A DNA stretch of 64,000 nt from Thermoproteota archaeon. Lineage in GTDB: Archaea; Thermoproteota; Thermoprotei; Thermofilales; B9-G17. Of this stretch, positions 47,081-47,593 are shown in pieces. How positions within the stretch are numbered: position 1 is the stretch's first letter; each line of letters begins with the position of its first letter. Position numbers and translations under genes: made by a program. The stretch spans positions 96,001-160,000 of the forward strand of contig JAPDJW010000001.1 of assembly GCA_029258885.1 (NCBI GenBank). The letters are read 5' to 3'. The notes beneath the pieces were generated by a model. It saw only the letters and a list, made by a program, of their open reading frames with translations, had not been told where the DNA came from and searched no databases.

Positions 47081-47593
47081 ATGCCTCAAGAGAAGACATT
47101 TAAGTTTCTAATAGAAGGAGGAAAGGCCACAGCTGGACCCCCTATATCTTAGGGGAAAGGTCCAGCCTTAGGGCCTCTTGGACTCAACGTAATGGCAGTA
47201 GTTAGGAGAATAAATGAACTCACTAAAGATTTTGCTGGAATGAGAGTACCAGTTACTGTTAAGGTTGATATTGAAAAGAAGACGTTTGAGGTTGAAGTAG
47301 GTGTACCAACGACTGGGGCACTCATAGTTAAGGAGCTGAAGATAGAGAAAGGATCAGGTCTTCCAGGGAGGGAAATAGCAGGGAATCTCTCTATGGAACA
47401 GGTAGTAAAAATAGCGATTATGAAGAGAGATCAGTTGAAGTCGAGGACGTTGAAGGGATGCATTAAGCAGGTTTTAGGGACGTGTTTAAGCATGGGAGTT
47501 AACGTTGAAGGAAAGAGCCCGAAGGTTGTTCAGAAGGAGCTTGATGAAGGAGTATATGATGATTTATTGAGGAAGTATGGTGAGGAGATATGA
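47081..47593 (+). CDS. rpl11: 50S ribosomal protein L11, interrupted by a 12-nt BHB/BHL-type intron (exons 47081-47145 and 47158-47593)
   Basis: ATG 47081 after a GGTGA RBS; [22 protein letters not shown][S*GK][15 protein letters not shown]...; removing 12 nt gives the canonical motif. Confidence 0.92.
47146..47157 (+). other. Putative pre-mRNA intron ATCTTAGGGGAA in rpl11
   Basis: Outer helix GCTGGACC:GGTCCAGC, central helix CCCT:GGGG, AT|A and AA|A cleavage sites, in-frame TAG inside. Confidence 0.85.

Follow-up and report, generated by a model that had tools for sequence, protein, structure and literature searches.

The interrupted rpl11 gene and its product

The window analyzed in this work, that is, the whole stretch of 64,000 nucleotides from a Thermoproteota archaeon (GenBank assembly GCA_029258885.1, contig JAPDJW010000001.1, positions 96,001 to 160,000 of the forward strand), contains the gene for ribosomal protein L11, rpl11, in an interrupted form. 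The source assembly amounts to 2.10 Mb and is 99.9% complete; its order, the Thermofilales of the GTDB, comprises 41 species genomes. Nearly identical DNA is found in hydrothermal-vent and sediment metagenomes. The gene occupies positions 47081-47593 on the forward strand, with ATG 47081 as start and the stop codon at 47591-93, and is broken by an in-frame TAG at 47150-52, inside the sequence for the motif GPPIGPALG. We consider it very probable that the 12 nt at 47146-47157 constitute a genuine archaeal intron of the bulge-helix-bulge type, present in its bulge-helix-loop form in the single rpl11 gene of this organism. The features of the gene and its upstream region are as follows:

47036-47045, forward strand: TATA-box-like element TTTTAAAATA upstream of exon 1, a putative promoter element
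47072-47077, forward strand: Shine-Dalgarno-like GGTGAT, ending 3 nt before ATG 47081
47081-47145, forward strand: rpl11 exon 1, 21 codons and the AT of an Ile codon, aligning with the N-termini of uninterrupted relatives
47146-47157, forward strand: 12-nt probable bulge-helix-loop intron AUCUUAGGGGAA with TAG at 47150-52; homologous inserts of 11-22 nt occur in 12 other Thermofilales
47158-47593, forward strand: rpl11 exon 2, from the A of the Ile codon through the stop codon

Across the break the codons read GGA CCC CCT ATA TCT TAG GGG AAA GGT CCA GCC. When 47146-47157 are deleted, GGA CCC CCT ATA GGT CCA GCC remains, which encodes GPPIGPA and restores GPPIGPALG; A47146 and A47158 are identical, so that deletion of 47147-58 yields the same product. 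The spliced junction would have the sequence GGACCCCCTAT|AGGTCCAGCC. Exon 1 (47081-47146, with the A that completes the Ile codon) corresponds to positions 2-16 of the Pfam profile Ribosomal_L11_N, and exon 2, from 47159 onwards, matches positions 17-57 of the same profile, followed by the RNA-binding domain Ribosomal_L11. The splice junction joins positions 16 and 17 of Ribosomal_L11_N and is exact to the residue. A preliminary description of the window had proposed a four-codon insert with TAG in the L11 motif as well as a cut after the second nucleotide of the bulge that rebuilds Pro-Ile-Gly exactly. Direct reading and translation confirm the insert, with every coordinate in place, and the profile positions joined at the junction bear out the cut.

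The sequence GGTGAT probably marks 47081 as the true start of the gene. Gene callers predict instead an open reading frame (ORF) of 133 amino acids from ATG 47192, which covers merely positions 28-57 of Ribosomal_L11_N and stays below the family cut-off. Direct reading of the window sequence reveals no in-frame start codon between the insert and ATG 47192. The encoded GPALGPLG(L/V/I/M)N is nevertheless kept in all 13 intron-bearing genes of the order, with synonymous codon differences. Since this segment has no start and yet is conserved as protein, its codons must be translated together with exon 1.

A single match to rpl11 is present in the source genome, and likewise in each of the intron-bearing relatives. 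The intact second copy that would have spoken against an intron does not appear in this 99.9% complete genome, and the rest of the gene at 47081 is intact. The 12 nt are genomic and not an assembly error: contigs of two independent studies (runs X2 and X6) span 46900-47700 without a gap and include the same insert. At 47149, in the loop of the intron, both have C in place of the T of the window, and the X6 contig differs furthermore at 47374 and 47398, both of which are third positions of GAA codons where the change is synonymous.

Structure, conservation and history of the insert

The proposed pre-mRNA structure comprises an exon-exon helix, a short central helix formed between exon and intron, and the two splice sites:

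47132-47139, forward strand: 5' strand of the outer helix, GCTGGACC (= GCUGGACC), codons Ala-Gly-Pro, forming an 8-bp exon-exon helix
47140-47143, forward strand: exon strand of the central helix, CCCU; both end pairs covary across relatives
47144-47151, forward strand: 8-nt loop ATATCTTA with the predicted 5' splice site AU|AUCUUA, located where a full bulge-helix-bulge would have its 5' bulge and inner helix
47152-47155, forward strand: intron strand of the central helix, GGGG; 4 bp, three C-G and one U-G
47156-47158, forward strand: 3-nt bulge AAA with the predicted 3' splice site AA|A; all relatives have NNA in this bulge
47159-47166, forward strand: 3' strand of the outer helix, GGTCCAGC (= GGUCCAGC), codons Gly-Pro-Ala, the exact reverse complement of GCTGGACC

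The 8-bp helix, the 4-bp helix, the 3-nt bulge and the 8-nt loop together give the geometry of the bulge-helix-bulge and bulge-helix-loop family. Folded alone, the segment reaches -22.7 kcal/mol (z = -2.4).

The gene was sought in all 41 Thermofilales genomes and the DNA upstream of each match was read; 37 genes were readable, two lay at contig ends and two genomes gave no match. An insert interrupts 13 of these 37 genes, always at exactly the same nucleotide, after the AT and before the last base of the Ile codon; the other 24 encode an uninterrupted GPPIGP(A/S)LG. The alignment of relatives proposed in the preliminary description thus yields homologous inserts in 12 further genomes and intronless genes in 24. 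The inserts measure 11, 12, 13, 13, 14, 15, 16, 16, 16, 18, 20, 21 and 22 nt; four of these lengths are divisible by three, and nine of the 13 inserts break the frame. Open-frame length is an unreliable sign of the intron because a gene with a frame-shifting insert may still show a long open frame, and the sequences were therefore read directly. Related genomes bear related inserts, as exemplified by actgtagagggaa, accgtagagggaa and acggtagtgagggaa in one genus (g3 of family f2) and by the genera of family f4, in which all inserts have the form acg...cggggtta; such a pattern is consistent with vertical descent. Additional loop variants, for example aactcggggag and aaaagccgggggaa, are found on metagenome contigs.

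The rule that both cuts fall after the second nucleotide works in 13 of 13 genes. The 3' bulge of the relatives is NNA throughout (AAA, AGA, UAA, AUA), and the 5' bulge or loop begins with AU followed by any base. In one genome (G029) the 5' bulge is AUG, and here the conserved Ile is restored solely by a cut after the second nucleotide.

For a test of covariation the 13 intron-bearing sequences were aligned and the 12 proposed pairs were compared with 500 shuffles. Every one of the 153 cells is paired, and each of the four variable pairs shows covariation; column 3/43, for example, contains GC, CG, UA, UG and AU. The covariation score is 0.38 as opposed to 0.10 in shuffles, none of which matched it (0/500), and pairing falls to ~57% when the partner strand is slid by one column. 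Folded without constraints, 11 of the 13 sequences adopt this geometry. Four genomes (G033, G034, G036 and G016) contain a full bulge-helix-bulge, in which the 5' bulge has 3 nt and the inner helix 3-6 bp; the shorter inserts are of the bulge-helix-loop form. Loop and inner regions differ in both sequence and length, yet the structure is kept, which is the pattern of compensatory change.

The outer helix offers a further comparison. It is formed by the codons for Ala-Gly-Pro and Gly-Pro-Ala, so that the protein determines six of the eight pairs and leaves two third positions free. These free positions pair in 26 of 26 instances in genes with an insert versus 19 of 48 in genes without, the latter being about chance level. 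Both third positions pair in all 13 intron-bearing genes compared with 5 of the 24 intronless genes (Fisher p = 2e-6, a value to be read with the reservation that relatives are not independent). The synonymous sites of the outer helix are constrained just where the helix is needed, and they provide a built-in control.

Full complementarity of the third positions in the Ala-Gly-Pro/Gly-Pro-Ala helix is still seen in the intronless genes of family f5 (L005 and L006) and of genomes G039, G026 and G037. This complementarity may be due to chance or may be a trace of recent intron loss.

The distribution of the intron was mapped onto a tree calculated from the L11 C-terminus, L1 and P0 of 29 Thermofilales and five outgroups. 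Presence and absence require at least seven changes, at least five of them across well-supported branches. Intron-bearing lineages stand at the base of most clades, and large crown groups of the Thermofilum/Infirmifilum type are without the intron. One old gain followed by about seven exact losses would be the most economical account of this pattern; a study on the cbf5 intron infers a parallel history for that element (PMC2738675). Outside the order, no insert is present at this site in 76 other archaeal rpl11 loci. Nor was one seen in 20 loci from 18 further genera of the same class, of which ten have a contiguous GPPxGP and eight, all belonging to families f14 and f15, a divergent N-terminus without the motif.

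The genes of the latter two, Thermoproteaceae-like families (L148-L156) are worth recording in their own right: the N-terminus of their L11 lacks the near-universal GPPxGPxLG, and their reading frames are continuous.

Splicing enzymes, proposed mechanism and rival explanations

The window itself encodes the presumed cutting enzyme, a tRNA-splicing endonuclease (EndA) subunit:

503-1051, forward strand: catalytic (alpha) subunit of EndA, the presumed cutter (Pfam tRNA_int_endo, 114.6 bits)

This protein matches the catalytic chain of the Aeropyrum pernix (APE) enzyme (3P1Z_B) with an E value of 4.5e-51. The Crenarchaea-specific loop aligns without gaps and places K39 and K41 opposite K44 and R46 of APE. 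A second protein of the EndA family has its best match in 5X89_A ('EndA-like protein, tRNA-splicing endonuclease', residues 15-175) and also matches eukaryotic Sen54; we read it, encoded on contig C2 of genome G000 at 472923-473453, as the probable structural beta subunit. By homology, then, the genome is predicted to encode an EndA of the (alpha-beta)2 type with the Crenarchaea-specific loop. The RNA ligase RtcB is encoded as well (contig C1, 488272-489579; 604 bits). The Crenarchaea-specific loop, and K44 in particular, enables EndA to cleave bulge-helix-loop substrates (PMC3241643), and cleavage of such substrates is likewise described for (alpha-beta)2 enzymes with this loop in general (PMC12397907). 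An EndA pair of the kind that acts on relaxed motifs and an RNA ligase are therefore both present among the genes of the host.

As to the mechanism, the Ala-Gly-Pro codons of the pre-mRNA would pair with the Gly-Pro-Ala codons in an 8-bp helix, and the next four exon bases, CCCU, would find their partners in the intronic GGGG. In this way a 3-nt bulge would display the 3' splice site AA|A, and the 5' site AU|A would lie four base pairs away in the loop. We infer that both sites are cut in the cell by the heteromeric (alpha-beta)2 EndA and that the exons are joined by RtcB. The spliced mRNA would then give rise to a normal L11 with GPPIGPALG, and translation of the unspliced mRNA would stop after 23 codons.

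Several observations weigh against this interpretation. In the fold of minimum energy (-20.7 kcal/mol) the 8-bp helix is combined with five inner base pairs and a bulge of 4 nt, and the register with the 3-nt bulge needed by the endonuclease is 1.4 kcal/mol worse (-19.3). The fold of one sequence is by itself weak evidence in any case, and it is on account of the comparison with relatives that the structure amounts to more than chance. The outer helix is in part dictated by the peptide, and 5 of the 24 intronless genes are able to form it too. Twelve nucleotides without an inner helix make a very small substrate, and no test of one that small was found in the literature searched. Lastly, the sole RNA run located, metatranscriptome X17, contributes a single contig (47506-47700) that lies off the splice junction.

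Among the explanations that dispense with splicing, translational recoding by readthrough, frameshifting or a hop past the insert as in T4 gene 60 has some superficial appeal, as an in-frame 12-nt insert with a stop codon in a stable hairpin looks like a bypass site. The inserts of the relatives, however, are 11-22 nt long and fall into all three phases, so that no single rule of recoding fits them. A hop would moreover find no landing codon that matches the take-off codon AUA, which is followed by UCU UAG GGG AAA, with AAA as the codon before GGU, and readthrough would add four residues within the invariant GPPIGPALG. Conservation is seen in the geometry of an endonuclease substrate, the 4-bp helix and the 3-nt bulge, with covariation. 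We regard recoding as extremely improbable. A split gene without any joining would yield a 23-residue peptide and a protein starting from Met 47192, and the hairpin would be regulatory or terminator-like. Its attraction lies in the 133-aa ORF of the gene callers, in similar short ORFs predicted in relatives and in the existence of ATG 47192. It is made very unlikely by the 11 codons that precede this ATG, which contain no in-frame start and are nonetheless conserved as protein in all intron-bearing genomes, and by the product itself, which would be devoid of half of the N-terminal domain and does not reach the Pfam cut-off. We know of no split L11 of this kind. An artefact of assembly or sequencing, or decay to a pseudogene, comes to mind for a metagenome-derived genome whose closest DNA stems from vent and sediment metagenomes. 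The probability of such an error or of decay is close to negligible: the same 12 nt recur in contigs of two other studies and a homologous insert in 12 genomes, and the gene is single-copy in a virtually complete genome, otherwise intact, with strain variants that are synonymous.

A self-splicing group I or group II intron was also considered and rejected, given a length of 12 nt (11-22 nt in relatives), as against the hundreds of nucleotides of a ribozyme core, and no Rfam match at the gathering threshold.

Taking the insert as a spliced intron, one may ask whether it serves the cell, either as a checkpoint that ties L11 synthesis to the capacity of EndA and RtcB or as a shield of the target site from a homing endonuclease. 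A possible regulatory link between tRNA maturation and ribosome biogenesis had also been put forward in the preliminary description. Points in favor of such a function are that unspliced mRNA cannot yield L11, that the intron has long been retained in many lineages and that three core genes of the genome are split at highly conserved motifs (see below). On the opposite side, the intron changes between presence and absence at least seven times along the tree, which is most simply read as repeated loss and hence as a sign of dispensability, and an endonuclease gene is lacking near rpl11 in the window: no gene of an endonuclease family (LAGLIDADG, HNH or similar) lies beside rpl11, the neighbors being S5, L30, L1, L10 and an ORF with a helix-turn-helix (HTH) and an NrdD-like part. 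A function of either kind is, in our judgment, unlikely.

Further split genes and relation to known systems

Two more protein genes of the genome carry inserts of the same geometry. The gene for the TATA-binding protein (tbp) contains 29 additional nucleotides (contig C2 of genome G000, 334440-334468, minus strand; 1474-1502 in L126). The first Pfam TBP repeat breaks at profile position 37 into two frames, and splicing would restore NPEQFPGL. The central helix of this insert is CGGA/UCCG and its bulges are ACA and AGA; the inner palindrome of 9-10 bp is strong, the outer helix weak. In cbf5, a bulge-helix-bulge insert of 27 nt (contig C2 of G000, 423088-423114, minus strand; 1797-1823 in L131) places an in-frame TAA inside GTL-D-PKVTG, and its removal restores GTLDPKVTG. 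The ends of this element, CCCUAG|A ... GGGGAA|A, resemble CCCUAU|A ... GGGGAA|A of rpl11. A cbf5 intron is not listed for Thermofilum pendens or 'T. librum', the two Thermofilum species examined in the survey of this gene (PMC2738675).

The preliminary description had surmised a wider class of overlooked mRNA micro-introns and had suggested a genome-wide search for splice motifs that rescue broken frames. The former idea gains from tbp and cbf5, which are split likewise; the search itself brought no further reliable cases. Under loose settings, the scan for frame-rescuing motifs returned 1778 matches compared with 1649-1743 in controls with shifted junctions, and under strict settings 84 compared with 59-73. 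Only the match at rpl11 was convincing, all others resembling gene boundaries or antisense frames. Both tbp and cbf5, whose outer helices are weak, escaped the scan, which is unfit for counting introns. A search for an XPD-like helicase gave four DEAD_2 matches, none of them obviously split. As to the tRNA introns of the window, counted as six in the preliminary description, Rfam models place 24 extra nucleotides in the D-loop of one tRNA (4664-4755) and 29, ending in ...CCGAA, in the variable region of another (26672-26771); at two further tRNA matches (16592-16650 and 35649-35715) the 5' parts are disturbed or missing. Rfam was used here since ARAGORN, as run, reported three tRNAs without introns and missed the inserts.

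The three split genes invite a broader speculation. In the Thermofilales, splicing of mRNA by tRNA enzymes could form a regular layer of gene expression, in which rpl11, tbp and cbf5 would be gated by EndA and RtcB or the introns would shield target sites, with the AGPPIGPA inverted repeat as a recurrent landing place. We hold this to be rather unlikely.

The cbf5 pre-mRNA intron was reportedly described by Watanabe in 2002 and by Yoshinari in 2006. As of 2020, cbf5 was considered the sole archaeal mRNA reported to contain a bulge-helix-bulge intron, apart from the 5' untranslated region (UTR) case presented in the same paper (PMC7714728). No paper on an rpl11 intron was found in the open-access literature searched, and measured against that literature the intron may indeed be called new. 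Like the cbf5 element (Yokobori 2009, PMC2738675), it is a short intron of the bulge-helix-bulge type in a coding sequence, it is crenarchaeal, it occurs together with a hetero-oligomeric EndA and its presence is lineage-specific. It differs in gene and order, in its smaller size (11-22 nt), in being mostly of the bulge-helix-loop form and in an outer helix that encodes a peptide palindrome. The cbf5 introns of Desulfurococcales and Sulfolobales considered here from Table 1 of that study measure 22-31 nt (PMC2738675), and that of Staphylothermus 36 bp. Furthermore, splicing has been demonstrated experimentally for cbf5, whereas the rpl11 intron is known here from sequence.

The non-canonical tRNA introns of Thermoproteota (PMC3241643, PMC12397907, PMC4090602) share the 4-bp helix, the 3-nt bulge and the cuts after the second nucleotide. 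In rpl11, by contrast, the host is an mRNA without a tRNA body that would aid recognition, and it is a reading frame and not a tRNA fold that is restored. HVO_1309 of Haloferax volcanii is likewise an mRNA processed by the splicing endonuclease (PMC7714728); here, however, the 5' UTR of a euryarchaeal transcript is concerned and no codons are split. The splicing of HAC1 and XBP1 by IRE1 and RtcB in eukaryotes (PMC4090602, PMC13149111) also removes a small intron, here from a cytoplasmic mRNA at structured sites, with the aid of a protein endonuclease and a tRNA ligase, and it alters the reading frame. This likeness is one of working principle only, as the IRE1 endonuclease is unrelated, regulated by stress and directed to a motif of two stem-loops. 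Putative 12-bp introns in genes of an archaeal virus (Peng et al., cited in PMC2738675) agree in length and in their position in coding sequence, a comparison made here by description only; according to the citing study, neither their splicing nor their means of insertion was shown (PMC2738675).

The rpl11 intron would provide this rare kind of intron with a clear second coding case, and this in the gene for a universal ribosomal protein and kept across an order. Together with the two additional cases in the same genome it suggests that the class has been under-counted. At 11-12 nt and with no inner helix, the shortest forms would rank among the smallest substrates of a splicing endonuclease and would probe its lower limit. 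The natural series from full bulge-helix-bulge via minimal bulge-helix-loop to exact loss would show how such introns shrink and vanish.

There is also a practical side to these findings. Among the 32 closest public L11 entries 29 comprise 133-151 residues as compared with about 165, and most of these reflect the intron. Of five short entries that were checked, four lie behind an insert; the fifth (L133) belongs to an uninterrupted gene with a mis-called start, and a short ORF call is therefore unsafe as proof of an intron. Gene callers evidently miss these introns, and truncated L11 calls are carried into trees because L11 is a common phylogenomic marker.

Two features of the neighborhood of rpl11 may be added. 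The ORFs for S5 and L30, named from their translations, lie on the minus strand at 45724-46808, opposite to the ribosomal neighbors on the plus strand at 45100-45744 and from 47081 onwards. Directly after L10/P0 follows an ORF of 683 amino acids (49171-51222, plus strand) that combines an N-terminal HTH (DUF7347, HTH_20) with an NrdD-like C-terminal end.

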